Positions 541 through 16,632 of a stretch of DNA of 16,632 nt are shown here, piece by piece (within the stretch, counting starts at the first letter, position 1; every line of letters begins with the position of its first letter). Under the pieces are notes generated by a model. That model had not been told where the DNA came from. It saw only the letters and a program-made list of their open reading frames with translations, and searched no databases. This DNA comes from Candidatus Hadersleviella danica (GTDB lineage: Bacteria; Chloroflexota; Anaerolineae; Promineifilales; Promineifilaceae). Location: contig JADJSZ010000094.1 in the NCBI GenBank assembly GCA_016711405.1, positions 1-16,632 of the forward strand, written 5' to 3'. The position numbers and the translations under genes are program-made.

Positions 541-1254
541 GTGTTGGGTCACATCGCCCCACTTCCTATGCCACGGCCGACCTTTTTAGGCGGCCGTTTC
601 TTTTCCCCACACCCTATGGCAGATGCAGGGCGACCCCCCACCATAACCGATGACAGAATACTCAAGCGACTGCTTGAGGCGTTTGAGTGGGGCATGAACC
701 AAAAGGACGCGGCAAGGTACGCGGGCATTGCGCCCCAAACGCTATCGGCCGCGTTACGGCGCGGCCGTGAAGCGGACGAAGAAATGGCCGAGGGCGGGGC
801 GCGGGCTGGCAAAAAGCCGCTTACCAAAGATTGGCCATATGTGAGTTTTTACAGGCGGGTGGGGGAGGCGCGGTCAGTGATGGCGGCGCAAGCGGGGAAA
901 GCGGCCGTGAAACTGCTCAAGGGCGGCCGTAAGGTGACTGAGGTCACAACCGAGATTTACAGCATCATGGAAGCGGGGGAGGGCAAAGAACCCGTATTCG
1001 TGAAAGTAAAAGAGACGCGGGAAAGGCGGGTAGAAGAGTTACCCCCCGATTCGGCCATGACCCGCTTTGTCTTACAGCACAATTGGGGCAAGAGCGACGG
1101 CGCAAGCACGGCCGAAAGCGAGGGCGAGGGCGACACCATCAGCCCCGAACAGGCCGAGCAAGCCATGCAGAAACGGGCGGTGCAAGCGTTCGACGCTTTG
1201 CACTTGTTTGACGGCCTTGTGGAAGGGCAAGGGGAGGATGATACCTATGAGTAG
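541..1254 (+). CDS. terminase small subunit (putative). The start is uncertain: GTG at 541 with an AGGGG Shine-Dalgarno, or ATG at 616
   Basis: N-terminal HTH-like segment 'DDRILKRLLEAFEWGMNQKDAARYAGIAPQTLSAALRRG'. Acidic C-terminus. Its stop overlaps the start of the large terminase (ATGAGTAG). Position is immediately upstream of terL. Confidence 0.55.
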   Translation: MLGHIAPLPMPRPTFLGGRFFSPHPMADAGRPPTITDDRILKRLLEAFEWGMNQKDAARYAGIAPQTLSAALRRGREADEEMAEGGARAGKKPLTKDWPYVSFYRRVGEARSVMAAQAGKAAVKLLKGGRKVTEVTTEIYSIMEAGEGKEPVFVKVKETRERRVEELPPDSAMTRFVLQHNWGKSDGASTAESEGEGDTISPEQAEQAMQKRAVQAFDALHLFDGLVEGQGEDDTYE

Positions 1255-2702
1255 CCAACCACGAACCCCCACCAAACGCTTCCTGTTTCTGACCCAGCAC
1301 CTTGACTTGCCCCGCGCTTCGGGCGTTGACGATGCCCAATGGGAGCATTTTCAAGTGGCTCATTTGTGCGACGATGGGCAGTTCAGGATAGAGGACAAGA
1401 GCCGCCAAATTGCGTGGTCTTTTCTGGTGGCAATGGAAGCCACGGCCGAGGCCATTCTGGAAGGGCAAAGCTCCGTTTTCGTCTCTATCAATCTCGAGGA
1501 GGCCAGCGAAAAAATACGCTATGCCAAATCAGTTTTAGAGAACATCCAAAACTACAGGCTCCCCCAAATCATCCGCGACAACACTTTCGGCCTCGAGTTT
1601 GACAACGGGGCGCGGATTATGTCCCTGCCCTCGAGGGAGCCACGCGGCAAGGCGCGGATGAATGTCTACCTTGACGAGTTTTGTCACATCATGCGGGATA
1701 GGGCGATTTACTCAGCGGCCTTACCCATGATAAGCAAGGGCGGCCGTTTGCGGATTGGTTCAAGCCTGATGGGAGCGAGTGGGCAACATTGGGAAGTCAG
1801 CCAACAACGGTTACGGCCGTATCCGGGCTACACCCGCTCCGTAACCCCGTGGTGGAAAGTCAAGGCGTTTTCCAACGACGTGCGGACGGCTTACCAGCTT
1901 GCGCCCGAACATGCCCACGGCCGAGCGGGTGGAACGATTCGGCAACCAGCGCATTCGGGCAATTCACGACAACATGCACAGCGAAGATTTTCAACGCGAG
2001 TATGAATGTGTGTACGTGGACGAAACCAGCGCATGGTTCCCTTGGGAGGAGATTCAAGCCATTCAACAGCCCTCCCTCTACACGATTACGGCCGATACAC
2101 GGGGCGAAGCGGTGAGCAAGGCCATGAACGCCATAGCTGAGTTGAAAGCGGCCGTGACGCGGGGCGTGGTGGAAACGGCAATGGCCGTGGGCATAGACGT
2201 AGGGCGCACCCGCAACGCCACTGAAATCTTTGTGGTTGGTTGCACCACAACCGATACCTACCCCTTGCGCCTGACCCTCACCCTTGAAAATGCCAGTTTC
2301 GACACCCAGCTTGCGGTAGCGGCGGCCGTGTTCGACACCTTGCCCATTAAGAAAGGGTACATAGACCAGAACGGTATCGGCCGTAACCTTGCCGAGCGGC
2401 TCGAGAAACGCTTCCCCAGCAAGGTTGAGGGCGTGGATTTTACGGTGCAATCTAAAACGGTTTGGGCGACTGATGCAAAAATGCTTGCCCAACAACTCAA
2501 GGCCATTATCCCCGCTAACAGGGACTTGGCTTACCAGATTCATTCAATTAAGCGCACGATAACGGGCGCGAAAAACATGGTTTTCGACACCGACCGCACC
2601 GAAAAGCACCATGCCGATAAGTTTTGGGCATGGGCGTTGGCTCTTTCGGCCGCACGGGTCAAGGTCATGGTTCCTCGAGAATTTTCTAATCCAAGGCGGT
2701 GA
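1247..2702 (+). CDS. terminase large subunit (lambda gpA / Terminase_6-like), interrupted by an apparent +1 frameshift between about 1845 and 1905. Segment 1247..2005 is in frame 2 and 1845..2702 in frame 0
   Basis: The N-terminal half has the deviant P-loop 'DKSRQIAWS' (compare lambda gpA KSARVGYS) and a Walker B 'MNVYLDEF'. The C-terminal half has 'FQREYECVYVDE' and nuclease-domain acidic motifs 'AVGIDVGRT', 'GYIDQNGIG' and 'HHADKFWAWA'. The two halves are in different frames; frame 0 opens at 1845, directly after a TAA, at a CCCC run. The combined length is about 485 aa. SD GGAGG lies upstream of ATG 1247. Confidence 0.8.
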
Positions 2703-2706
2703 CAAG

Positions 2707-4144
2707 ATGATTGAAATTACAAAAGAGATGGATAAGCGGCTGATGGGCATGATAATGGGCGAAGTGGCCAATTACATGCAATCGGTTGCGCCCACTTTGA
2801 GCCAACGGCCGAAACTGGCCGCCATGCAATCCATTGGTGGCTACACGGGCGGGGCGATAAACCGCACAACGCACGGCGGCGATAGGGAGATTGATACCGT
2901 GCTGGGGCGCACAGCAACCGATTCGGCCACGTTTGATGTGTTTATGACGTGGTTCAAGCGCGACCCCGTGGCCAATGCCATGATTAGCAAGCCCGTATCG
3001 GCCACATGGCGACGGCCGCCCCAAATTACCGACGGGGATGCAAACGATACCCCGTTTTGCAAAGGCTGGAAGCAATTGGTCAAGCAAAAGAAGATTTGGA
3101 CAACGTTCCCCCGCCTTGACCGCCTCGCCATGTTGGGCAAGTACGCGGTTTTGCTCATTGGCTTTTCAGATGTCAAGAGCGACGCGGATTTAGCCACGGC
3201 CGTTAAGGAAAAGCAATTCAAGCGCGGTTTGGACGATGTCTACTTTTTGCGGCCGTATGGCGAAGACCAGATTAAGAAGATAACGAACAATGTTGACCCT
3301 TCCAGCCGTCGCTATGGCTTGCCCGAAACCTACACCCTCGTTGAAAGCATTGTCGTTTCCAGTGACGCGGCTCCTACCACCAAAGAGATAGATGTGCATT
3401 GGAGCCGTATCATTCACGCGGCCGATAGCACCATGCAAAGCGGCCTTGGAGGGGATTCCCTTTCTCTTGCCCGTCTTAGATGACCTCGAGGATTTGGCCA
3501 AGACCATTGGCGGCGCGGCTGAATCGGTTTGGCGGGCGAGTGGGCAAGATATTGTCATGGCCATGAATGAGGGCTATGAGTTCCCCACCGAAGCCGCCCG
3601 CGAAGATTTTACCGAGCAATTGCGCGACCGTGTCAATCAGCTTGTGCGGTCAATTATCACTACAGGCGGCAATCCCCAAATCGTTCACGCCACGGCCGTT
3701 GACCCGACGGGCATTGTGACCGCCATTTACAAGCGGCTTTCGGGCTACAGTGCCATCCCCTTGCGTATTCTGTTAGGGAGCGAGGCGGGGCGGCTGGCCA
3801 GTGACCAAGACGAAGGGAATTGGGCGGCGCACATTGCGGCGCGGCAAGTGGAGTATGCGGAGGATAGTATCTTGCGGCCGTTCATTGACCAGATGGTTTA
3901 CACGGGGGTATTGCCCGCGCCTGAGAGCGACGAAGGCTACGACGTGGGCACGTATGACCCCAAACACGACGCATGGATTTGGCCGAGCATTGAAGAAGCC
4001 AATGAAATGGAAAAAGCCGAAATTGCGGACAAGCGGGCGAGTGCCATGCAGAAAGCGGCCGATGTCGCGGCCGTCAACGGTTCCTTGGATGACAACGACG
4101 TGCGCGGCTTTGGCGGCTTGCCCCCCCGCGAAGATGAGGCGTAA
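2707..4144 (+). CDS. portal protein (probable; DUF1073 / HI1409-like by gestalt and position), interrupted by an apparent +1 frameshift near 3449-3453 (GGGG). Segment 2707..3483 is in frame 1 and 3392..4144 in frame 2
   Basis: It sits directly downstream of terL (stop 2702, ATG 2707 with a GGTGA Shine-Dalgarno). The two consecutive ORFs together give about 479 aa. The C-terminal part 'SAIPLRILLGSEAGRLASDQDEGNW...ILRPFIDQ' and 'GIPFLLPVLDDLEDLAKTIGGAAE' resembles portal C-terminal regions. The assignment rests on gene order and motifs, not on a search. Confidence 0.6.
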
Positions 4145-4147
4145 CCC

Positions 4148-4897
4148 ATGCCCACGCCTGACCTCTCATTCACCCCGCCCAACGACGGCGAAATAGCGGC
4201 CGATGTGCGCCAATCGTTTGCCCGTGTGGAAACGATTGGCCGCGTCATGGCTCTATGGGGCAAGTACGCCTCGTTGAAAGACTTGCCCCGCTATCCGCTC
4301 GACCCGCAAACGGGGCAATTCGTGCAACCAAACGGCCGCTTGCTCCCCTTTGCCGTGGTTCGTGCCAATGTGCAACGGCTGGCCAATGGCGTAGGGCGGG
4401 GCGAATTGGGGGAGATGACCAAGCGGCTCCAAAAGGGCAACGTGCCCCTTGCCGAGTGGTACAGCACCATGCGCGATACCAGCCGTGACGCTTATTTAGC
4501 GGCCGTGCTGGTTGCCTTGGGCGGGATTAGCCGACTGACCGCCACAACGCCCCAAGCGTGGGAGGGGGTGTACCAGCTTGCCGAGTTTCAAGAGCGCAAG
4601 CTCAGGGATATGGCCGTGGATTTGCAACGGGATTGGGAGGGGAAAAACACGGCCGCTTACAGCCGGGCAATCATGTACGGCGCGGCCGTGTATGGCGTGT
4701 TTGGCAACAGCAACCGCTTCTTAATGGACATTTTGGGCTTTAACCAAGAGCGGCGGGTGTTGGCTCCAGCCGAGCATTGTACCGATTGTGTGGGCTATGC
4801 CAGCGTGGGCTGGCGGCCGATAAATTCACTCCCCCCCATTGGCGATAGCAAGTGCCTATCCTATTGCCATTGCAGTTTTAGATTTAGGCGGGTGTAA
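4148..4897 (+). CDS. head morphogenesis protein, phage Mu F / SPP1 gp7 family (minor capsid protein)
   Basis: Position after the portal. C-terminal signature 'EHCTDCVGYASVGW...PPIGDSKCLSYCHCSF' matches the C-x2-C ... PP ... C-x3-C-x-C motif of Mu-F-like proteins. 'LAEWYSTMRD' lies in the core. Confidence 0.7.
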   Translation: MPTPDLSFTPPNDGEIAADVRQSFARVETIGRVMALWGKYASLKDLPRYPLDPQTGQFVQPNGRLLPFAVVRANVQRLANGVGRGELGEMTKRLQKGNVPLAEWYSTMRDTSRDAYLAAVLVALGGISRLTATTPQAWEGVYQLAEFQERKLRDMAVDLQRDWEGKNTAAYSRAIMYGAAVYGVFGNSNRFLMDILGFNQERRVLAPAEHCTDCVGYASVGWRPINSLPPIGDSKCLSYCHCSFRFRRV

Positions 4898-4917
4898 CTG
4901 GCCAGACTACGCCCGCC
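4887..4917 (+). terminator. hairpin overlapping the gp7 stop codon (stem GGCGGGTGTA / TACGCCCGCC, 11-nt loop), not followed by a U-tract. It may be a weak terminator or an RNA-stability element
   Basis: Inverted repeat read from the sequence. The missing T-run is why confidence is low. Confidence 0.2.
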
Positions 4918-5228
4918 TCCCATATATAGATTGTTCCCCTGCTTGTTGCCGTTGTCACCTCCTTTTGCAGTGAAGTACAGTTCAGATTGTAGCACAAAAT
5001 AAACCAGTCTATGTCTATCAACCACTTAAACCCCCTGACCGCCTCCGATATTTTCAAGCGTGTAACCAATGCCGATAGCGGCCGTGCCTACATGGTGCAA
5101 GCTGACGTATGTGGTCATTGATGGGCAAATCATGGTGCAAACCGTCGCCCCCCACCGCTTCGAGATGAAACAAGGGGTAAGCATGTACGCCGTGTTGGGC
5201 GAGCTGACCGACGCGCTAAATCCTGCTC

Positions 5229-5258
5229 TTGAACTTTCTGAACCGACTGCGGTATAAT
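5229..5258 (+). promoter_or_regulatory. putative promoter P1 (-35 TTGAAC 5229-5234, 18-nt spacer, -10 TATAAT 5253-5258)
   Basis: Near-consensus hexamers. The -35 element and spacer are themselves built from a TTGAACT-tt-CTGAACC direct repeat. Confidence 0.35.
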
Positions 5259-5280
5259 CTTTTTTCAGTCTCCTCTCTGC

Positions 5281-5328
5281 GGCCGTTGGTTAGTGACCCA
5301 AAACTAGCCAACGGCCTATTTTTTTTGG
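5281..5328 (+). terminator. rho-independent terminator T1 (13-bp stem 5281-5293 / 5304-5316, 10-nt loop, then TATTTTTTTTTT)
   Basis: GGCCGTTGGTTAG ... CTAGCCAACGGCC is perfectly complementary apart from one G-U pair, followed by a 10-T run. It lies only about 20 nt downstream of the P1 -10 element. Confidence 0.7.
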
Positions 5329-5345
5329 CTATTTTTCTGAACTTC

Positions 5346-5374
5346 TTGACCTGTTTTTGATTTTCGTTTACACT
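5346..5374 (+). promoter_or_regulatory. putative promoter P2 (-35 TTGACC 5346-5351, 17-nt spacer, -10 TACACT 5369-5374), with a CTGAACT copy abutting the -35 element
   Basis: Hexamers and spacing read from the sequence. The predicted transcription start is about 5381. Confidence 0.35.
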
Positions 5375-5458
5375 ACTATGCGATAGGCAAATTGTTTGCC
5401 ACCAATCGAATAACACCAATTCCCGTTAGGCCGTGAATCGGCCGTCTACCACCCAAAA

Positions 5459-5502
5459 GGCGGGCACACAACCAAAAAGTGTTGTGTGCCCGCCTTTTTT
5501 TT
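5459..5502 (+). terminator. rho-independent terminator T2 (perfect 14-bp stem GGCGGGCACACAAC / GTTGTGTGCCCGCC, 8-nt loop, 8 Ts), ending 11 nt before the ATG of the scaffold gene
   Basis: Perfect inverted repeat plus TTTTTTTT, read directly from the sequence. Confidence 0.8.
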
Positions 5503-5512
5503 GTTTCCACCT

Positions 5513-6709
5513 ATGGAACCCGAACAAACAGGCGAATCCACAACCCCAGAGCAAGAGCAAACGGCCACCGAAACCCATGCGGCCGTCGCCCTTGCCGCGC
5601 CCGTCATGGTTAACCATGCCCTGCAAATCAACCGCGCCGCCATCCGCTACGAAGCGTTCAATGGCGACAACTTCATGGTTGCCCCGTTCGTGGGCGCGGT
5701 CGAAGGGGTAATGAACGGGGCACTGATTTTGGCCAGCGAGTTAGAGCAGAGCGCACCGCTCTACCCCGATAGCCCTGTTGTTGTAGGCCATCCCACGGTA
5801 AACGGTGCGCCTATCAGTGCCAAGGGTCAGCCCATCCCCAAAATCGGCCGGGTCTACAACACGGCCGTGGATGGTGACAGGTTGACGGGCGAGTTATGGG
5901 TGAGCCAACGCGCCGCCCAATCTGCCCCCCGTGGCCAAGAGGTACTAGACAACCTCGCTACGGGCAAGGTCAACGAAGTGAGTTGGGGCTGGTGGATGCA
6001 AGCCGAGCCAGCCCAAGGGGAGTTTAAGGGCAAGCCCTACGCCGTCATCGGCCGCAATTTTATCCCCGACCACTTAGCCATTTTGTTAGATGTGCCCGGC
6101 GCGTGTTCTGTAGCCGACGGCTGTGGAACGCTCCGAGCTAATCAAGCCCTGACCGTCAACTGCGATTGCGGTTGCTCTGGGCATGTCGTCAATCCCAATC
6201 CATCAATCACAGGAGAAAAAACTATGACGGGTAACACCCAAGTAGACGCTCCCATTGAAGAGGACGAGGTTGTTGACGCTGTGGAAACGAGTGGGGCGCA
6301 AATCCCCGCCCCGACTGCCCCAGCGCAACCCGATTCCGCTTCTTTGGAAGTGAACCAAGTGCAAGCGGTGAAAGCCGAGCTTGCCAAACTGGCTGATTCG
6401 TTTGCCAAAACAAATCAGTTGGTTGCCAACCAGAACAAGCTCATTGAAGAGCTGTTAGGCGAACGGAAAACCCAAAAGCAACAGGCGCGTGAAGCGCAAA
6501 TTGCTGAACTGGCCACCTACGCCAATCAGCCGTTCAGCGTGGCCACGTTGAAAACTTTCAGCGACGAAGCCCTTGCTGAACTCGAGGGCAAGTTCCGCCC
6601 CGCTTACATGGCGGGCATGGGCATGAGCATCAACGGCCGCACCACGACCGCTGACCCCAACATGGGCTATGCGCCCGCCGCGCCCTATCTCTTTGGGGAG
6701 GTGAAGTAA
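5513..6709 (+). CDS. putative scaffolding / prohead-protease-like protein (DUF2213-like gestalt)
   Basis: Acidic Pro/Glu/Thr-rich N-terminus. A central domain ('VSWGWWMQAE', 'FIPDHLAILLD'). A Cys cluster 'CSVADGCGTLRANQALTVNCDCGCSGH'. A low-complexity Pro/Ala linker. A C-terminal coiled-coil-like Ala/Glu/Lys/Gln region typical of scaffolds. It lies just upstream of the capsid gene. There is no Shine-Dalgarno; the start codon follows T2. Confidence 0.5.
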   Translation: MEPEQTGESTTPEQEQTATETHAAVALAAPVMVNHALQINRAAIRYEAFNGDNFMVAPFVGAVEGVMNGALILASELEQSAPLYPDSPVVVGHPTVNGAPISAKGQPIPKIGRVYNTAVDGDRLTGELWVSQRAAQSAPRGQEVLDNLATGKVNEVSWGWWMQAEPAQGEFKGKPYAVIGRNFIPDHLAILLDVPGACSVADGCGTLRANQALTVNCDCGCSGHVVNPNPSITGEKTMTGNTQVDAPIEEDEVVDAVETSGAQIPAPTAPAQPDSASLEVNQVQAVKAELAKLADSFAKTNQLVANQNKLIEELLGERKTQKQQAREAQIAELATYANQPFSVATLKTFSDEALAELEGKFRPAYMAGMGMSINGRTTTADPNMGYAPAAPYLFGEVK

Positions 6710-7144
6710 ATGACTACCACAACGGGTAATCCCTACACCATTTTCCTGACAGGCCGCGACCGCACCGTTTTTGACGAAGTGGCCGTGACCGATGCCGTGG
6801 TTAAGCCCGGCATGTTCTTGGCTCGCACAGCCACAGGCGCACGGCCGCAAAACGTAGCCGCCGCCGCCGCTCCCTCGCTGGTTGCCACCGAAGCCACCGT
6901 ATTCGAGGGCACGATTGAAACCGAATTAGCCGTGGGCGAACGGGTTCAGTTTGGCAACGCCTCGGGTTGTCACGTCTACGCCATCTTGCTTTCGGGCGAG
7001 AACGTGGCCGCTGGTGCGAAGTTGACCCACGACGGCACGGGCAAATTGGCCGCCCTCGGGGTTGACGAAGTTTGGATTGCGACCGCCTTAGAAGCGGTAG
7101 ACGCAAGCGCGGCGGATAAACGAATCCGCGTGGAGGTGCTGTAA
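6710..7144 (+). CDS. small head-associated protein (possibly a decoration or auxiliary capsid protein), 144 aa
   Basis: GGAGGTG Shine-Dalgarno. The start overlaps the upstream stop (TAAATG). It lies between the scaffold and the major capsid gene. Function is inferred from position only. Confidence 0.45.
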   Translation: MTTTTGNPYTIFLTGRDRTVFDEVAVTDAVVKPGMFLARTATGARPQNVAAAAAPSLVATEATVFEGTIETELAVGERVQFGNASGCHVYAILLSGENVAAGAKLTHDGTGKLAALGVDEVWIATALEAVDASAADKRIRVEVL

Positions 7145-7146
7145 CC

Positions 7147-8136
7147 ATGAACGCTGAATTTGCAACCATTGAACTGGTGTCCCAATTGGACATCAACAAA
7201 ATGCGCCCCATCGCTGGCTTCCATGCCAACGCGCTTTTGCGGCAAGACGATTGGCGCACGATTGACGACGCGGTCGTGAAAGTCGCTCGCCAAAACCTGA
7301 GTGTTTTGGATGACCTCGCCCGTTTCGGCCTTGTACGGCCGCCCGCTGGTTTGGGGCTGATGTTCAGTTCCTACGAACAACAAAGCGAACTGACCACGGC
7401 CAACGTGGACATGGCGGCCGACACCCGCGCCGAAATGTCCAACCTCAACCACACGACCATCAACATTCCTGTGCCCATCATCCACAAAGAGTTTTCTCTG
7501 AACGCTCGGGTGCTGATGAATAGCCGCATGAACCGCATGGAAGGGTTGGACGTTAGCCACGCCGAAAGCTCTGCCCGGCGCGTGGCCGAAGCCATCGAGG
7601 ACATGATTATCAACGGCGTTTCGTTGACCGTGAACGGTTCCACCATTCAGGGCTTGACCAACGCTACCAATCGTGTCACCGACACCGCTACCAACTTTGG
7701 CGGCGGGGCGTGGAGTACGGCGGGGAACGCCTACAAAACCATCAACGGCATGATTGCTGGCATTGAAAACAAAGGTTTCTATGGCCCTTATGGGGTCTAC
7801 GTGGCCAACAACTTGTGGAGCAAGCTCCGCAATCTGATTAGCACCGAATCGGGCAAGTCTGAAATGGCCGCCCTCATGGAAAACCTTGGTTTGGCCACAG
7901 GCGGGCAAGTCGCCTACGTCAAGCCCTCCCGCTCCCTTGCCGCTGGCACGGCCGTCTTGTTCCAACTCACCAGTGATGTCATTGACATTGCCACGGGCGT
8001 TGGCATGACCACCGTCCAATGGGAAGAGCAAGGCCGCTTGACCAGCAATTTCCGCGTCATGGCGGCGATGGCGCCTCGTGTCAAGTACGACGCTTCCAGC
8101 AATTGCGGTGTGGCTCATGCCACAGGTGCGCTCTAA
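7147..8136 (+). CDS. major capsid protein (HK97-fold, DUF2184 / encapsulin-like type, inferred)
   Basis: 329 aa. Strong GGAGGTG Shine-Dalgarno. It lies immediately after the scaffold and small head protein. The composition and length are typical of this MCP class. The long antisense ORF 6976..8118 covering it is low-complexity and rejected. Confidence 0.7.
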   Translation: MNAEFATIELVSQLDINKMRPIAGFHANALLRQDDWRTIDDAVVKVARQNLSVLDDLARFGLVRPPAGLGLMFSSYEQQSELTTANVDMAADTRAEMSNLNHTTINIPVPIIHKEFSLNARVLMNSRMNRMEGLDVSHAESSARRVAEAIEDMIINGVSLTVNGSTIQGLTNATNRVTDTATNFGGGAWSTAGNAYKTINGMIAGIENKGFYGPYGVYVANNLWSKLRNLISTESGKSEMAALMENLGLATGGQVAYVKPSRSLAAGTAVLFQLTSDVIDIATGVGMTTVQWEEQGRLTSNFRVMAAMAPRVKYDASSNCGVAHATGAL

Positions 8137-8147
8137 GGGGGTGACGT

Positions 8148-8480
8148 ATGGCTGACCAACTTTACAAAGTGCGTGAGGGTAAGCGGTTTGGGGCGTTTGA
8201 CCAGTACGAAAGTGGCGACACCGTGGTACTGGACGAACTCGCGGCCGTGCCCTTCCTCGACAAGTTGGAACCTGTCACCCCAGAAACAGGGGCGGGTAAC
8301 TCTGCCCCTGTTGACCCGCCCTCTGACACGCTCCCCAGCGGCTTTCCCCACGCCACGAAGTTAGCGGCCAGTGGCTACACCACGGTTACGGCCGTGCGGT
8401 CAGCTACCGACGCGCAACTCATTGCCCTCAAAGGCATTGGCGAAAAGGCCGTTGTTGAAATTCGTGAGGCATTGGCTTAA
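8148..8480 (+). CDS. hypothetical head-module protein with a C-terminal helix-hairpin-helix motif ('LIALKGIGEKAVVEI')
   Basis: GGGGGTGA Shine-Dalgarno. 110 aa. The G-I-G hairpin with flanking hydrophobic helices is an HhH signature. Confidence 0.55.
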   Translation: MADQLYKVREGKRFGAFDQYESGDTVVLDELAAVPFLDKLEPVTPETGAGNSAPVDPPSDTLPSGFPHATKLAASGYTTVTAVRSATDAQLIALKGIGEKAVVEIREALA

Positions 8481-8857
8481 TGGCACTCCCCACCGCCTAC
8501 ACCGAAGCCACGTTCAAGGCTTATCTCTTCTCCCAAATAGCAGGGCTAAACCTGACTTGGACGGTAGACGGCGGTGATTTTGATGAAATCGTTATCTCGG
8601 TTGGGCTTTACCTCTCAGCCGAGATAGCCGATGTCACCAACATTAAGTTGCTCCGGGCAGTCGGGCGGCGCGAACTCTGGTTAGCCGTCATGCAAGCGAG
8701 TGGCAACAAGGCCACGGCCGCCACGGGTGTAGCGGGCAGTATCACATTCGGCAAAAACATTTTTGACCGTGCCCAAGACTTGTACAACAAGGCGACGGCA
8801 GAGGTTGAATTACTCGAGGGCGAGGTCACTAAAACCCCGTCTCTCTGGGCTGGTTAG
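8480..8857 (+). CDS. putative head-tail connector / head completion protein
   Basis: Start overlaps the upstream stop (TAATG) with a GAGG Shine-Dalgarno. 125 aa. Position is between the capsid and tail genes. Confidence 0.45.
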   Translation: MALPTAYTEATFKAYLFSQIAGLNLTWTVDGGDFDEIVISVGLYLSAEIADVTNIKLLRAVGRRELWLAVMQASGNKATAATGVAGSITFGKNIFDRAQDLYNKATAEVELLEGEVTKTPSLWAG

Positions 8858-8861
8858 GGCA

Positions 8862-9272
8862 ATGCTCGACTTCGACATTGAACTCAAGGGCTTTTCCAAA
8901 ACGACGTTGCGCTGGCAAAAGACGCTTGCCCAACGTGCCGCCATCGCCCAAGAGGAGTTGAACAAGTTCGGGGAAGCGGCCGTGCAAAAACTGGCGGGCG
9001 AGGCTTACCCCGCCCAACTGCCCAATCAGAAATACGTCCGCACTTTCTTGTTACGCAACCGCTTTCAATGGAAAGCACGGCCGTTGCAGAAAGCCGGGCG
9101 GATTCTGCTCAGTAACACCGCCCCGCGCCGTCGCTTTGCGATTGGGAAGAAATCGCAAGCGCGAATCCATCAGGGCAGATGGTGGACGATGCAAGACAAA
9201 GTCGTGGGCTACACCCCCGCTCTTCACAGGGCGTTGTTAGCGGCCTACATGGAACGGCTGACAAATGGATAA
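8862..9272 (+). CDS. hypothetical neck / head-tail joining protein (start uncertain; the track ORF begins upstream at 8763 in the same frame)
   Basis: The frame is open from 8763 to 9272, but the first ~100 nt overlap the preceding gene. ATG 8862 is the first ATG after that gene's stop. Confidence 0.45.
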   Translation: MLDFDIELKGFSKTTLRWQKTLAQRAAIAQEELNKFGEAAVQKLAGEAYPAQLPNQKYVRTFLLRNRFQWKARPLQKAGRILLSNTAPRRRFAIGKKSQARIHQGRWWTMQDKVVGYTPALHRALLAAYMERLTNG

Positions 9273-9741
9273 AGAAGCCGCCTTAATCGCCCTCCGCAAT
9301 ATGATTCGCGCCGCTGGCACGGCTCCCTTGTCCAACTTGGGGCAACGGGTGTGGGTTCAGTCAGAGGATTACACCTCTGTTTCCATCGCCACTTACCCCT
9401 TTTGCCTTGTGAACTATGCCATTGGCGAGGATTTTCCCGTGCGGAAAGCGGCCTTGAACGGCCGTTACACCTACGAATGGCTTGCCCAAGTCTACTTTGC
9501 CGTTGGCTCGGCCGATGTGGGCTATCCCAGCTCCGCCTTTGCCGCCGCACAACAAGCCAGCAAAGCATACCCACGGGCGTTGTTAAGCCTTTTGGCGGCC
9601 GATACGACCAAGTGGGCGGGCACGATTCACGCGCTCGGCAACACAAATTACTACTTACGCGACAACTTCACAATTTGGGAATGGGACGGCAATGTACTGC
9701 TCGGCCAAATGGTTGAGATACCCGTCACCCAATTCTTTTAG
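9265..9741 (+). CDS. hypothetical tail completion / neck protein
   Basis: The ATG overlaps the upstream stop (ATGGATAA). 158 aa. It directly precedes the major tail gene. Confidence 0.5.
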   Translation: MDKEAALIALRNMIRAAGTAPLSNLGQRVWVQSEDYTSVSIATYPFCLVNYAIGEDFPVRKAALNGRYTYEWLAQVYFAVGSADVGYPSSAFAAAQQASKAYPRALLSLLAADTTKWAGTIHALGNTNYYLRDNFTIWEWDGNVLLGQMVEIPVTQFF

Positions 9742-9753
9742 GAGAAAAACAAC

Positions 9754-10230
9754 ATGGCTATCTCAGGAACCTTAGCGGCCGAAGATGCAATGAACATGTC
9801 CAATGCCGTTTTCGGCGTTGACTTAGGCTCGACAGGCACATTTGCGGCCGTTTCCACATGGACAACCAACGTCGCCACGACAGGCGGGGAAGCTCCCACG
9901 GCCGAAATGATGCGGCTGGCGGGCGACCCCATCGTGAGCGTGGGGCGCAAAGGGGCGCGGACTGTAACCATCACCGCCATTTATGACAACGCGGCCACGG
10001 GCGTTTTCCAAAACGTCTACGCCGCCCACGAAGCGGCCACAGCAGGGCGCAAGTGCGATGTGCAATGGACGGCCTTTGGCGCGACGGCGGGCGACCCCCG
10101 TTTCACGACCGTTAACGGCTTGCTCACCAGTTGCACCTTGCCCGACTTGAACGCCTCCGAAGCGAACCCATCCACGTTCCAGTTCGTGATTTTCGCCTCG
10201 GCCGTTGAACTCGACGACGTGCCCGCCTAA
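9754..10230 (+). CDS. major tail (tube) protein, siphovirus type (inferred)
   Basis: Strong AGGAGA Shine-Dalgarno. 158 aa, Thr/Ala/Gly-rich. It lies immediately upstream of the G/G-T chaperone pair and the tape measure gene. Confidence 0.55.
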   Translation: MAISGTLAAEDAMNMSNAVFGVDLGSTGTFAAVSTWTTNVATTGGEAPTAEMMRLAGDPIVSVGRKGARTVTITAIYDNAATGVFQNVYAAHEAATAGRKCDVQWTAFGATAGDPRFTTVNGLLTSCTLPDLNASEANPSTFQFVIFASAVELDDVPA

Positions 10231-10267
10231 CCCGAATCACCATTCACCCTAGAGGACGACTAAGACA

Positions 10268-10630
10268 ATGACAACCGAAACCGAAACCAACGATTTTGTG
10301 ATTGAAGTAACCGTGGGCGGCATGACTGGCACTGTAGCCTTGCCCGACCCCGAAGAGTTTACGGGGCGCATGTACGATGACTTTATGGCCTTGAACAAGA
10401 AACACAGCAAGGGCGGCACGTCGCAATTGCGGGTCATGTTCTACACGGCCGTGGAGTTCATCAAAAAGTACGGCGGCTGGAACGTGGTTAGTGCTGATGG
10501 GATTCCCGTCAGCATTGACACCGCGCTCGGCTGGAAAAACTCCCCCAGCGCCGAACCGTTTAAGTTTGTCACTTTCTTAGGGCGGCAAACCGACGCTTAC
10601 TTCGTGAGCATTTTCGACCCAAAAAAGTAA
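10268..10630 (+). CDS. tail assembly chaperone G (gpG-like)
   Basis: 120 aa. It ends ...FDPKK* with its last codons forming the slippery heptamer A_AAA_AAG. It lies between the major tail and tape measure genes. Confidence 0.7.
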   Translation: MTTETETNDFVIEVTVGGMTGTVALPDPEEFTGRMYDDFMALNKKHSKGGTSQLRVMFYTAVEFIKKYGGWNVVSADGIPVSIDTALGWKNSPSAEPFKFVTFLGRQTDAYFVSIFDPKK

Positions 10631-10926
10631 TCTGGCAGGTATGGCGCAAGGTATCCCACGGCAAAGGTTCAATGCCCTTCCCTTGGGATACCGCCCGCCT
10701 CTGCCTGAATATGCAGAACGGGGAAGTAATCCACTTCCCCGCTGGCACATACAACAAGCAGGTTGCTACCGAACACGGCCGTCAGCAATTGGAACTAATG
10801 GAACTGACCTACCAAGCGCACCGTGTTTTTGTCGAAATGGGGCAACCAAACAAACAATCTGACAAGACCGCGCTCGAGTTTCTAAAAATCGCTCGAGAAG
10901 TCGAGAAAACCCGTCAACATGGCTAA
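10268..10926 (+). CDS. tail assembly chaperone G-T fusion, made by a -1 programmed ribosomal frameshift at 10621-10627 (join 10268..10627, 10627..10926)
   Basis: The -1 frame (frame 1) is open from the slippery site through track ORF 10672..10926 with no stop (KVIWQVWRKVSHGKGSMPFPWDT...). Its stop overlaps the tape-measure ATG at 10919. This layout is conserved in long-tailed phages. Confidence 0.65.
10621..10627 (+). promoter_or_regulatory. -1 programmed ribosomal frameshift slippery heptamer A_AAA_AAG (dnaX type)
   Basis: In the zero frame, cc[a aaa aag] taa. Read directly from the sequence. Confidence 0.7.
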
Positions 10927-13900
10927 CGAAAAAGACACCTTAGAGATAGAAGTCAAGGCCACGTTGCAAGGCGACGCGGCGTTCAAGTCTATTCTGAGTG
11001 ACCTTGAGAAAATCCGCAAAGAAGCGGATAAGGTCAAGCAATCGGCCGCTGGCATTGGCGGGGCGAGTGGGAGCATTAAGAGCGCGGCCACGGCCTTGGG
11101 CGAGGTTGAATCAGCCGCAAAAAAGGCGGGCAAGGGCGTAGGGGAAGCCGAAAAATCCACCGAATCAGCAGGTAGCGCGTTTACCAAAATGAGTGGGCTG
11201 GCCACGGCCGCATGGGCGGCGGCGGGCGCGGCCGTGACTGCGTTCGTGGTTGATTCGGTCTCCCAATTCATGGCCTTTGAGAAGGGCATGGCCGAAGTCT
11301 TTACCCTGTTGCCGGGCATATCAGGCGCGGCAATGGACGCAATGACGGCCGATGTGCGCGCCTTTGCCCTTGAATCGGGGCGACTGCCTGACGAAGTTGT
11401 GCCCGCCCTCTACCAAGCTATCAGCGCGGGCGTTCCCCAAGCCAACGTATTTGACTTTATGAAAGTGGCCAGCGACGCGGCTTTAGGCGGCGTGACTGAC
11501 CTCGAAACGGCCGTGGACGGTATCACGTCGGTGGTCAATGCGTATGGTTCAGAGGTAGTTAGCGCACAACAGGCCAGTGACATCATGTTCACGGCCGTTA
11601 AGCTGGGCAAAACCGACTTTAGCCAATTATCCGCCTCCCTCTTTAATGTCATCCCCACGGCCGCCGCCTTGGGCGTTTCGTTTGAGGACGTAGCGGCGGG
11701 GTTAGCGGCCGTGACTGCTCAGGGCACACCTACCAGCGTCGCCACAACCCAAATGCGGCAACTGTTTGTGGAACTGAGTAAGGAAGGGGGAAACACCAGC
11801 CGCATCTTTAAGGAAATAGCGGGCGTAGGCTTTAAGGAATTTTTAGCGCAAGGCAACAGTCTACAGGACGGCTTGCAACTCCTTGAAGAGTACGCCGCCA
11901 AAACCAACGTTGGTATCAACGACCTCTTTGGTTCGGTGGAGGCGGGCAGTATCGCCCTTGGTTTGACAGGGCAAGGGACTGAGAAATTCACGGCGGCCGT
12001 GCAAGAGTTTGGCAACGTGACGGGCGCAACAGGGCGGGCGGCCGATTTGATGGGCGAAACCACGGCGCAATCAATGGCGCGGGCAAGCGCGGCCGTCAAC
12101 GAACTCAAATTGATGTTGGGCGAATCACTCGCCCCTGCTTTGGCACAAACGGCCGAAGCTGTGTTAAGCCTTGCCAACATCGCCCTCCCTTGGCTGGCAA
12201 GCAACTTGAACAAGTGACCGTTGACAGGCGCGTTTGCCGACGGCATGAGCATCATAGCGGGTGAAAGCGAAGCTGTGGAGCGAACCGTAGCAGGTGTGGC
12301 CAATGTGGTAGGCGACAACGCGCTTTCGGCCGCTGAAAAGATGGCGCAATTGGACGCGGCCATTAGCAACGCGGGCACGGGCGGCCGTGTGTTTGGCCAC
12401 GCTGAAGAGATTGAAGCGGGCATGGTGCAGGTGGCTAAGGCCGTTGTCACGGGTGCAACCTCTTACGAAGATGCAATTGCCCGCATGAAAGAAGCGGGAT
12501 TCGAGATGGACGCGGAGGGCATGAGCTTTACCAGCCCTCACGAATGGGAAGCGTTTCAAGCGGCATGGGCACAAGTGGAGCAGGGCGCGGTCTTTTCGGC
12601 CTCCCAAGTCATGTCCCGCCTTGTGGACGTGAGCGGGGCGTATGCCCACACGGGCAAAGAAGCCGATGACGCGGCCGTGTTTATCACCGACTTGACCGAG
12701 GAGTTGGAAAAGAACGGCCGTGCTTACGAACAAGCGACTGAGGCCACGGCCGCCAATGAGCAGGTCAACGAACGCATTGCCAAGGTCAATGAAGCCGCGT
12801 TAAGCACCAGCGAAGCCAAAAACCAATTACTGAAAGAGGAAGCCCTAAGCGCGGGCAAAACGGCCGAATCCATTGCCGAATACGAAGCGGCAACCAAAGC
12901 GGCTTTGGCCGCTACACAGGCGTTTGTGCGGGATTCGACAGGCGCGTTTAACAAGTCGGGCAACATCTTTGGCGACGCTTTCCAAGAGCTTGAAAAGGCC
13001 GAAAACGCGCAAATCAATCTGAACGCGGGCACGGTATGGGCGTACAACCAAGCCTCTAAAGAAATAACCGAAATCAGCGGCCAATTAGCGGCCGATTTGA
13101 GCGAAGACCAGCAAAAAGCGTTCCAAGAAATCTTGGGCACGGTAGAGGAAGGGTCAGCCGAATGGCTGAGCGCCTACAACGCTTTGCAAGGCGATTTAAG
13201 CGACAGTGCCCGGCAGGGTCTTGTGGCGCAAATGGCTGAATTGCAAGGGGAGGCAGGCGAGTTAGCGGGCGGCGGGTTAGAAGCGGTGTACGGGGCTGAC
13301 ACACGGGCGGCCGAAGAAGCCCGCGCCGCCATCGAGGAAGCCAATCAAGCCATCATTGCCAGTTACAAGGCGACCACGTTTGAGGCGTTGCTGGCTCAAA
13401 CGGGCGTGACCGAAAGCACGTTAGCTTTCGGGCGTTCAATTGGGCATTATGACCGAGGCAGAGGCGGCGGCGCGGCTCGAGTTTACCAATACCACCCTCG
13501 CCCTGACCACGCTGGCCAGCTCGCAAGAATTTGCGGCCGCTTCCACCCGTGACCAAGCGGAGGCCGCGCAACTGCTTATTTTGGGCTACGCCTCTTCAGC
13601 GGAGGAAGCGGCCACAATGGCGGCCTCCATATCCGACAAGGGCGGCTTATCCGAATCCCTGTTAGCGGCCACAAGCCAAACCGAACAACTGAATCTTGAA
13701 TTAGCCAAGCTCGAGGGCGACAAAGAAAGCAAGGTCAGCGTGAGCGTGGACGGCATTGAATCGTTGCGCGAAGCCGTAGGGCTGACCCAGCAAATGGCGG
13801 GCGGCGGGCGCAAAGACGGCGCGGCCACGGCCGCTTTGCCCGAAGCCCGTGCCGTGGGCGGGGACATCAGCGCGGGCAGTCCCCTACATGGTAGGGGAGC

Positions 13901-14160
13901 AAGGCGCGGAACTGATTTTCCCCAGCAAGAGCGGCTTCGTGGCCACGGCCGCGCAAACCCGCCAATTGCTGAACGAAGCCAAACAAGCCCAAGCGCAAAT
14001 GGCCATGAGTAACAGCTATGCGACAAATACGGCCAACCTGAGCATGACCAACAACATCTATGCGGGCAACCAACCCGCCCAAGATATTGCCAGCACGATT
14101 GACCGACGCGGCCAACAAACCGCCCGCAAAATGGCGCGGCTCATGGGGCAAAAAATCTAA
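10919..14160 (+). CDS. tail tape measure protein (TP901-type core), about 1080 aa if continuous. As written it is split four ways: 10919..12217 ends at an in-frame TGA; 12218..~13430 (frame 2); a +1 shift near 13426-13432 to frame 0; a +1 shift near 13881-13884 (CCCC) to frame 1; end at 14160
   Basis: The first segment carries the TP901-family tape-measure core ('DIMFTAVKLGKTDFSQLSASLFNVIPTAAALGVSFEDVAAGLAAVTAQG'). The middle is Ala/Glu/Gln-rich and helical. The last segment carries the conserved TMP C-terminal motif 'VPYMVGEQGAELIFPSKSGFV'. Segments 1 and 2 share a frame and are separated only by 'aag TGA ccg TTG'. Confidence 0.8.
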
Positions 14161-14585
14161 TGATACCTACCTCATTCTCTGCCCTGACCGTCACGGCCTT
14201 AAACAACGGCACAACCACCTTTGCGGTGGATATGGGCTATGACCACTTGCCAATGGAAAACCGCCTTGTCGAAACCATTGCGGGGGTTTACGACACCAGA
14301 GGAACCCAAACCAGCCGCCGCAAGCCGGGGGTGCGACAAGTGCGCTACATCTTTGAGGGCGCAACGGCCGCTGATTTGCATAGCCACATCAATACCCTTG
14401 AATTTACCGACAAGGGCAAGAAAGGGACATTGACCCTGACCCGCGTGGGCGGCGCAACCACCTACACCTGCACGGCCGCGCTCACCAACATTGCCGTGGC
14501 TTTCCTGAGTGAAGATAACCCCGATGAAACAGCGGCCGTTATCACTCTCTTTTTGGCCGAATTAACAGCCCTTGCCCAAGCGTAA
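14160..14585 (+). CDS. small tail protein directly after the tape measure (possibly distal tail protein-like), 141 aa
   Basis: Its ATG overlaps the TMP stop (TAATG). Function is inferred from position only. Confidence 0.4.
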   Translation: MIPTSFSALTVTALNNGTTTFAVDMGYDHLPMENRLVETIAGVYDTRGTQTSRRKPGVRQVRYIFEGATAADLHSHINTLEFTDKGKKGTLTLTRVGGATTYTCTAALTNIAVAFLSEDNPDETAAVITLFLAELTALAQA

Positions 14586-14594
14586 CCAACACTT

Positions 14595-16632
14595 ATGACC
14601 ACCAACGGCGTAGTAGTGCAAGCGGATAGCGTCCGCGTTGATTTTAAGGCAACCCCCACGGGCGACGTATTGGCCACGACCACGGCCGTCTACAACCCCA
14701 GTGGAACCCAACGCCTGAGCATGGCGGGCGATTGGTCTTTTACGATGCCGCTGGCCGCTTATGACCCTGACACGATGGGCACGGGTAAATACGCCTTTGG
14801 CTTTGCCGCCTTCCCCAGCGTGACCAATTACCCGCTGTTTGCGGGGCGCATAGAAGAGGGGGATGACGACCTAAACCCAGATATTCACACGGTCACGATT
14901 AGCGGCATGGATATGTTGGGGGAACTGACCAAAAAAGAGATAGCCCACGCCGAAATTTGGGCAATTGCAACCGAAATACCAGTGTCGGTGTTGGGCGAAC
15001 GCTGGTACGCCTACGAAAACGAAACGGTTATCCCCAAGCCAGAGGCCAATGATGGCGATACAGGAACCGAGGCGGGCTTTATTTTGATTCGGTCGTTAAC
15101 GATTCCCCGACCCCAACAACCCCCGACCTTCCCCGAAGAGGCGGCGGCCGAAGAGGATAGGCTGATTCAGCACGTCAAGTTTATCTATTTTGGGCACAGT
15201 GCCCCGTTTTGGCGGATTGACCTAAACATCGCGACCGACATTGTGCAATCGGTTGCCTCGACCATTTTTATAGAGTTGTTCAACGCAGAGGGGCAATGGG
15301 AATCCCGCGCCATTGACACCAATACAACCATCGTGGCGGGCAAGCCATTTGCCCAAAGCGGGTACATTGAATGGGCAAAGGCTGAATTAGAACACCCCAT
15401 ACGTCACGACGGCATTACTCAGTATTGGGGGCGGATTGGGGTAAGCGGCGCGGCGTTGTCGCTGTTCAAAATCAAAGAAACCACCGTGCGCACAATGGGG
15501 CCACTGGCAACCGATGTGGAAACGTTGGTGGATGATTACGCCCCTGCAGGATGGTCTTTGGCCTCGGGCAGTGAAACGGGCACGGCCGACGGCGGCCGTC
15601 AAATCTACATTGCTGGCCAAACAGCGTTAGCCGCCCTTGTTGACCTCGCCAAACGCACGGGGGAGATGTTCGCCCTCATTGGCACGAACCAAATCAAGTG
15701 GTTGGCCTCGCCCATTTCCAGCGGCATAACGGCCAAAGAAGCCCCCGAGGGCGGCGACACAAGCACCTCTGTCTACATTAGCCGCTTGAATCGCACCCGT
15801 AGCCGCCGTGACATTATCACCCGCGCCTACTTGCGCGGCGGCGGCAATGACCCCGTGGCACAGGTAACGCTTTCGCCCTTGGACGGGCTGGACGTGTCGG
15901 CCTATTTGGGCGCGGATTACGCCGTGAGTGGCGACTGGTTAATCAACACGGCCTTAGAGGCGACATTAGCCACCGAACTGCCTAAAACCGTCAACTTCCC
16001 CAACATCGTAGCCGTTGGCGGCGGCACGGGGCGCAATCGCCAAAACGCGCTTGAGTTGTTGCGCTTCGGGCGTGGCCTTTTTGGAACGCAACAAAGACGA
16101 GGCGCGGCATTACACGGCCGATATTGTTGGCTTGCGCTCTTCCTCAGTGCATCCGGGCATGACCATGAACGTCGTGGCCAACATTTATGACGCGGACGGG
16201 GGAGTGACCGAGGCCATAGACGAAGATTTAGTCATTGTCGAAATGACCCAAAGCATGGGCAATGACGGCATTTTGTCATGGCGGATGGTCTTTGGAACCA
16301 TTGCCGAGCATGTGCCCACGGCCGCATTAGCAGAAGCGGGGCAAATTGCCCTAAACCAACAGAAAATGAACACCCCCCAAGCGGGCAGTAGCAACTTTGC
16401 CGTGGGCGGTTTGGCTGTGGGTAGTTCATCGGGCACGGGAGGCGGGGGAGGCGGCGGCACGGCCGAGCTTGACGCGCACATGGCCGAAACCTTCACGGCG
16501 CATCAGATACCGCTCCAAATTGACAACAAAATTGCGACCCATGCGGCGTTGACCACCACGGCGCACGGCATCCCCAGCCAGATTGATACCAAGATTGCGG
16601 CACATAGTGCTATTGAAGATGCGCACCATGAC
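14595..16632 (+). CDS. tail tip / tail fibre protein, continuing beyond the right edge. It has an apparent +1 frameshift at the TTTTT run 16078-16082: frame 0 up to that point, then frame 1 to the window end
   Basis: The frame-0 ORF 14595..16190 ends in junk (...TQQRRGAALHGRYCWLALF...). The +1 frame from about 16081 reads as good protein ('LERNKDEARHYTADIVGLRSSSVHPGMTMNVVANIYDADGGVTEAIDEDLVIVEM...') and is open to position 16632. It ends in a poly-Gly tract and tandem ~21-aa repeats 'TAHQIPLQIDNKIATHAALTT / TAHGIPSQIDTKIAAHSAIED'. Confidence 0.6.

Follow-up and report, generated by a model that had tools for sequence, protein, structure and literature searches.

The window analyzed in our study is a whole NCBI contig of 16,632 bp from a 'MAG: Chloroflexi bacterium' (metagenome-assembled genome, MAG), which carries the locus tags IPL28_25110 to IPL28_25215 with the proteins MBK8434365 to MBK8434386. 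The listing of its open reading frames (ORFs) together with Pfam and PHROG scans revealed a co-linear phage morphogenesis module whose genes all lie on the + strand (Table 1). The order terS-terL-portal-protease-MCP-...-chaperones-TMP-tail proteins, in which MCP denotes the major capsid protein and TMP the tape measure protein, is present with Pfam and PHROG family matches and is syntenic with ten related contigs, L001-L010. It is a head-tail module of a tailed phage with an HK97-fold capsid and a TP901-type TMP. Five of the genes, namely terL, portal, gp83, TMP and the large tail gene, are broken by changes of reading frame. We consider it highly probable that these broken genes reflect small insertion and deletion (indel) errors of the consensus or assembly in a metagenome assembly, probably a Nanopore-based one, and not mutations of the phage. 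Most likely, the frame breaks concern the quality of the data and do not show a prophage in decay.

The relatives were obtained by protein searches with the repaired terL and TMP, after which the contigs were fetched. They share 80-93% nucleotide identity with the window and jointly span all of it. L001 and L010 come from two JGI samples and are 98.7% identical to each other and about 89-91% identical to the window. The six relatives from Logan are k-mer-assembled contigs and comprise L002 (80-89% identity to the window), L003-L006 from four runs with an identical intact TMP of 1081 aa (90-93%) and L007 (93%). L008 and L009 both originate from a single JGI sample, metagenome 3300056999. Nucleotide searches of phage and E. 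coli collections gave no match to the window, and scans of GTDB genomes and IMG/VR with the MCP yielded no relatives. Exact-protein look-ups of MCP, gp249 and P0241 found no contig, and a near-identical contig (>97%) of the same strain was not found in the searches.

The initial annotation had described terL (frame 2 to 0), portal (1 to 2), TMP (2 to 0 and 0 to 1) and the tail gene (0 to 1) as split, and this was borne out, as the halves match the same family or the same intact homologue. The first half of terL matches Terminase_6N and its second half Terminase_6C. Once rejoined, the protein shows 96% identity to P0001 and 75% identity to the intact 476-aa P0002, and in the NCBI deposit the two halves stand as hypothetical proteins (IPL28_25110 and IPL28_25115). 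One half of the portal protein matches positions 5-153 of the Phage_portal_3 profile and the other positions 164-357; intact portal homologues of 477-480 aa are present in L001, L002, L008, L009 and L010. An in-frame TGA and two +1 shifts divide the TMP into four segments, which are deposited as separate proteins. An intact homologue, P0121 with 1081 aa, occurs in four Logan runs and matches at 92% identity and 100% coverage, and a second one, P0252 with 1085 aa, was found in JGI data. The homologue of the large tail protein measures at least 1220 aa in L003 and 1612 aa in L008, whereas NCBI calls only the first 531 aa of the window's protein (MBK8434386.1).

The positions of the lesions were taken from alignments to relatives with intact genes, and frame switches were identified with tblastn, using the proteins of the intact relatives as queries and the window as the target. 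Exactly six frame switches were detected, one each in terL, portal, gp83 and the tail protein and two in the TMP, and all six uncompensated changes are +1, which confirms the earlier claim of a common direction. In terL (lesion A) the window reads CCCGAACATG where L001 has CCCGTTC-TG and L002 has CCCAACA-TG; in a longer view CCCGAACATGCCC stands against CCCGTTC-TGCCC in L001, L009 and L010 and CCCAACA-TGCCC in L002. The portal lesion (B) appears as GCGGCCTTGGAGGGGATT compared with GCGGCCTT-GAGGGGATT (CCTT-GAGGGG) in L008 and L009, both flanks being identical in these two contigs. In gp83 (lesion C), a gene that should have been intact according to the statement that the small genes are unaffected, ATGGTGCAAGCTGACGTAT replaces ATGGT-CAATGTCGTGTAT of the relatives, and the high-scoring segment pairs obtained with the L001, L002 and L008 proteins stop at 5097 in frame 1 and restart at 5102 in frame 2. 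The first +1 shift of the TMP (lesion E) consists of a C between TTT and GGG that extends no run (window GCTTTCGGGCGTT, L008 GCTTT-GGGCGTT, L003 GCCTT-GGGCGTT, L007 GCCCTCGGG-GTG). The shift in the tail protein (lesion G) is seen as TTGCGCTTCGGGCGTG in the window against TTGCGC-TCAGGCATTG in L003.

Two further sites disturb the reading frame only locally. At lesion D in the TMP the window matches L008 at 13 of 15 bases out of register compared with 7 of 15 in register, and the peptide in window frame 1 is QVTV, as opposed to EVAV in L008 and KITMV in L003. The in-frame TGA at 12215-12217 arises because the out-of-register stretch between the two deletions contains a stop, and it is the sole in-frame stop among the lesions. 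Besides, a stretch of the tail protein is scrambled in comparison with L003, L005 and L007: the ORF remains open, but the peptide is replaced, so that the window reads FILIRSLTIPRPQQPPTF in frame 0 while the three relatives encode VYFDSVVTQLPPDPNNPDLS, pieces of which are found in frames 2 and 1 of the window. Counted together, the indels of the window number at least 12, all of them small, over about 15.2 kb of coding sequence. Apparent indels at 16467-16482 were discarded as alignment noise, as the peptides are equal in length. Each lesion is private to the window contig, with one to seven related contigs from other samples per site lacking the change. In the alignments to the relatives, no nonsense substitution, no deletion of more than 4 nt and no insertion sequence (IS) was found among the lesions.

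Table 1. Genes, lesions and other features of the window
Feature	Position	Strand	Remarks
Small terminase subunit terS	616..1254	+	intact; PHROG 4102; full-length match in one frame to the 212-aa protein of L001/L010
Large terminase terL	1247..2702	+	split, frame 2 to 0
Lesion A (terL)	1907..1911	+	one extra base, outside any run >=3
Portal protein	2707..4144	+	split, frame 1 to 2
Lesion B (portal)	3448..3449	+	G to GG
249-aa gene, gp249	between portal and the ~83-aa gene	+	
Small gene gp83	5005..5257	+	83 aa (81-84 aa in relatives); split, frame 1 to 2
Lesion C (gp83)	5097..5112	+	extra G at 5097 (GGT[G]CAA), then garbled for ~9-15 nt
Protease/scaffold-like gene	5513-6709	+	
Decoration-like gene	between the protease/scaffold-like gene and the major capsid gene	+	
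Major capsid protein MCP (HK97-like)	7147..8136	+	intact; DUF6260, Linocin_M18, PHROG 771
Six small head/tail genes	between MCP and TMP	+	
A_AAA_AAG slippery heptamer	10621..10627	+	end of gp120 (CC A_AAA_AAG TAA), just before the stop; not a lesion
Tape measure TMP, TP901-type	10919..14160	+	~1079 aa if repaired; PHROG 991 and others
Lesion D (TMP)	12203..12222	+	-1 and -2 deletions, 10-16 nt apart (vs L003 and L008)
Lesion E (TMP)	13429..13433	+	one extra C: 13429 vs L003/L008, or 13433 vs L007
Lesion F (TMP)	13881..13884	+	CCCC vs CCC in six relatives; sole true homopolymer expansion
141-aa gene, gp141	between TMP and the large tail gene	+	
Large tail protein	14595..16632	+	runs off the contig end; split, frame 0 to 1
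Scrambled stretch (tail protein)	15074..15131	+	four indels (-1, -4, +1, -2; net -6) in 57 nt; C-run-rich
Lesion G (tail protein)	16065..16066	+	T to TT

According to the initial annotation the frame changes always occur at a short homopolymer. This does not agree with the alignments, in which only the CCCC of lesion F fits and the other five of the six sites lie outside runs of at least 3. For terL the runs CCCC 1845-1848 or TTTT 1868-1871 had been named, but both have the same length in the intact relatives. Likewise, the GGGG assigned to the portal break, which actually occupies 3451-3454, is also GGGG in the intact L008, and the TTTTT at 16078-16082 in the tail gene is identical in L003. 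The TMP site near TTT/GGG was close in location, but no run is extended there since C13429 is inserted between the two runs. Hence, three of the five named positions were wrong by alignment, and for the runs named, a comparison of homopolymer lengths showed a shorter run in the relatives at 13881-13884 only, with unchanged lengths at 1845, 1868, about 3451 and 16078. With a run of at least 4 every 56 nt in the window, chance alone places one or more of them in most of the 40-180-nt zones to which a shift can be assigned. A homopolymer is thus nearly always findable near any frameshift, and indels should be located by aligning the sequence to relatives with intact genes, not by inspecting it on its own. 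Moreover, five insertions had been counted; the insertion direction holds, but the count left out the deletions, the TGA and the scrambled stretch.

Several observations argue for errors of the assembly. In a census of frame switches over the same genes we counted 6 in 15.5 kb of the window, 0 in 42.4 kb of the six Logan contigs and 0 in 8.9 kb of L010; by our own arithmetic, if switches were spread in proportion to length, all six would land in the window with a probability of about 0.23^6, roughly 2e-4. A positive control was provided by L008 and L009, which overlap over 2,852 bp (L008:1-2852 and L009:10474-13318) at 99.65% identity and stem from the same sample. The overlap differs by 3 substitutions and 7 single-base insertions, and all seven insertions are in L008, none of them in a run of at least 3. 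They break terL and gp249 and match the lesions of the window in both type and +1 direction. L009 itself carries +1 breaks in terS and terL. The JGI assembly 3300056999 is rich in insertion errors, and the differences between L008 and L009 therefore establish non-homopolymer +1 insertion breaks as a demonstrated assembly error in this phage group. Such a duplicate assembly of the same DNA is available for this pair of relatives but not for the window itself.

The distribution of the indels points in the same direction. The -1 and -2 deletions lie within 16 nt (12203-12222), four indels fall in 57 nt (15074-15131) and 9-15 nt are garbled after 5097; these clusters look like locally bad consensus and not like independent mutations. 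Downstream of the shifts, in the shifted frames, the ratio of nonsynonymous to synonymous substitution rates (dN/dS) was 0.02-0.25 compared with 0.02-0.33 in intact genes, a comparison that is powerless for recent events at 7-10% divergence. Similar gene calls have been described for Nanopore-based, hybrid-polished MAGs, in which single-base indels private to one assembly split long genes into adjacent ORFs. As in the window, both halves read as good protein, and such calls are commoner in low-coverage contigs (PMC9262707). The same study reported that Nanopore consensus indels often give frameshifted gene calls and that low-coverage bins need short-read polishing (PMC9262707).

A number of points weigh against this interpretation. 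For any single lesion of the window contig, an error is a probable reading and not a proven one. A Nanopore consensus typically errs by deleting bases in homopolymers, but most uncompensated events of the window are insertions outside runs; in this respect the window differs from the Nanopore MAGs, and its own platform is presumed. The records IPL28 and MBK8434xxx presumably belong to the Nanopore project PRJNA629478, a link that could not be confirmed. The pipeline of this project used CANU with corMinCoverage=0, followed by Racon, medaka and Illumina-Racon (PMC8012365). Furthermore, a very recent inactivation would go undetected by dN/dS and is compatible with the values obtained. In L001, 2 nt are missing at position 2873 (window 2543; TTCA--CAATT) in comparison with its twin L010 and the window, and terL is thereby shortened to 433 aa. 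This -2 lesion is unexplained and may be a rare assembly error or a real defective variant. Such breaks would not be confined to one assembly type if L001 is, as we assume, a short-read JGI assembly, and in that case frameshift variants that are real or independent of the assembly may occur in these populations. Finally, the nearest relative does not switch at the lesions, as was tested for chimeric joins between strains.

The lesions could instead be real and mark a recently inactivated prophage or a defective phage genome that gathered small indels after its loss of function, which we regard as unlikely. As in a cryptic or defective prophage, essential morphogenesis genes (terL, portal, TMP and tail) are interrupted, and five genes carry independent inactivating lesions in a contig that was binned with a bacterial MAG. 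The private frame-breaking deletion in L001, which its 98.7%-identical twin lacks, would also agree with decay. However, the window contains only phage morphogenesis genes and a short upstream region and shows no host genes, att sites, integrase or other integration context, although the contig ends inside the tail gene and an integration site may lie beyond it. Bacterial pseudogene decay is deletion-biased, the opposite of the uncompensated events of the window, all six of which are insertions. The mixed spectrum of decay, with deletions at least as frequent as insertions, nonsense mutations, larger deletions and IS, was not found in the window. Unlike in a cryptic prophage, the lesions are clustered within tens of bases (16 and 57 nt), and dN/dS, which would not register a recent event, shows no relaxation of selection. 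No lesion is common to any relative, and the same lesion types are demonstrably artefactual in L008/L009.

Pure homopolymer-length miscalls of the 454, Ion Torrent or Nanopore type would be another way to produce the breaks, but as the sole explanation this is very improbable. In addition to lesion F, the C-runs in 15074-15131 differ from those of the relatives (C7 to C4, C4 to C5 and C5 to C4), and a change of AAA to AA is a possible reading at 12203. The remaining five uncompensated sites, the unchanged runs in terL, portal and the tail gene and the A6 at 10621-26, the longest functional run, which keeps its correct length, contradict it; by the alignments, homopolymer miscalling is largely refuted as the only mechanism. 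Accordingly, the proposal of a systematic insertion artefact needs to be divided: an artefact is better supported than decay, whereas a homopolymer miscall fits one of the six sites and some of the C-runs in the scrambled stretch.

A genuine recoding site is predicted elsewhere in the module. At the A_AAA_AAG heptamer the -1 frame is open into gp84 (10672-10926), and the site is identical in seven relatives, among them L001, L003-L006 and L008. This is probably a programmed -1 frameshift from gp120 into gp84, the tail assembly chaperones, of the G/GT type. It resembles the -1 frameshift of the lambda G/GT chaperones, and its conservation in the relatives parallels that system. The six lesions, on the contrary, are +1 and not conserved, slippery motifs are missing from them, and the genes concerned are never recoded. 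A biological decoding of the +1 changes, whether by programmed +1 ribosomal frameshifting or by transcriptional slippage, would leave the genes functional as written but is hardly credible: the six shifts share their direction and three of the five copies of the 8-mer TTCGGGCG on both strands lie at shift sites, but recoding sites are as a rule conserved, and in every relative terL, portal, gp83, TMP and the tail protein each occupy one frame without a shift at the homologous positions, no motif is common to all six sites, 14 TTGGGCG sites are unaffected, and the TGA and the scrambled stretch are left unexplained. We therefore rejected programmed recoding for the six lesions, as none is conserved like the gp120/gp84 site. 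We likewise give next to no weight to a broader version in which the extra bases are truly in the phage DNA, with the genes expressed by +1 recoding or with a population that tolerates a high load of insertion frameshifts in essential genes, for example as defective genomes propagated by co-infection; if the bases were real, TTCGGGCG at three of six sites would mark a recoding or mutational hotspot.

Under the interpretation as assembly errors, the contig would represent an ordinary head-tail module of a Chloroflexota-associated tailed phage that is probably functional. The frame breaks would be uncorrected consensus errors, consisting of single-base insertions and a few clustered small deletions. 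We infer a noisy long-read (Nanopore) metagenome assembly as their source, in which polishing would have failed locally, probably owing to low coverage or co-occurring strain variants. The expectation that one base fewer restores the genes is true at the six sites, but 12203-12222 and 15074-15131 also need repair; with both, full-length terL, portal, gp83, TMP and tail protein should result.

Lesions A and E can be read as tandem combinations of alleles from different relatives. In lesion A, CCC-G of the L001 type is followed by AACATG of the L002 type, and in lesion E, TT-C-G-GGC equals the third base C of the L007 Leu codon plus the G of L003/L008. Speculatively, if a gap-tolerant consensus of mixed strains retained both alleles of a polymorphic position, a base would always be added, which would explain the +1 bias. 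We do not rely on retained alleles or chimeric joins, as any +1 insertion fits the description and the nearest relative is constant across the lesions. Basecalling errors at a methylation motif (CGGCCG) were also considered and set aside: the motif turns up every 181 nt, and only two to three sites fall within 13 nt of a copy, an association that by our estimate is not significant. The 8-mer TTCGGGCG occurs five times in the window on both strands, three times at lesions A, E and G (1902-1909 on the - strand, 13427-13434 and 16065-16072), and its recurrence may reflect a context-specific consensus error. A systematic error specific to TTCGGGCG was nevertheless not adopted; it would explain three of the five occurrences, but the 14 TTGGGCG sites are unaffected and the relatives carry TTCGGGCG naturally.

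As far as can be judged from the comparison with the relatives, the frame breaks are in all likelihood not a real biological feature. Read literally, the contig would pass for a defective prophage, and the result is a data-quality warning: terL, portal, TMP and tail genes stand in the deposit as fragments called 'hypothetical protein'. With about a dozen small indels repaired, the contig would supply the complete morphogenesis module for a phage lineage that is associated with Chloroflexota and poorly known.

Some names of the gene products deserve comment. The MCP, which is 97% identical to the relatives, was named 'encapsulin' by NCBI (MBK8434373.1). Because it lies inside a terminase-portal-protease-capsid-tail module, it is to be regarded as an HK97-fold phage capsid protein and not as an encapsulin shell. 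A PHROG search returned no family for the 'tail fibre', gp141 and the small tail and head genes, and the label 'tail fibre' rests on gene position only. In the C-terminal part of the tail protein (about 16490-16632) a motif is found twice (TAHQIPLQIDNKIATHAA... and TAHGIPSQIDTKIAAHSA...) but once in L003, which is probably a natural tandem duplication.

The palindrome CGGCCG is present in 92 copies in the window compared with about 9 expected, whereas other GC-only palindromic hexamers have 0-1 copies each. The same excess was observed in L001 (62 copies) and L002 (103 copies). Of 85 coding copies, 63 are in a single codon phase (xCG-GCC-Gxx), and 75-91% of the CGGCCG sites are kept between relatives compared with 47-72% for background hexamers. 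CGGCCG is a HIP1-like highly iterated palindrome in this Chloroflexota-associated phage lineage, for which we found no paper describing such an iteration. Finally, the first ~760 bp of the window, comprising the upstream region and the start of terS, match two places in L009 (6189-6952 and 8341-9100) at 88-91% identity. Therefore, a segment of about 0.76 kb is duplicated upstream of the packaging genes in L009, and three N6/N4 DNA methyltransferase genes lie close to it.

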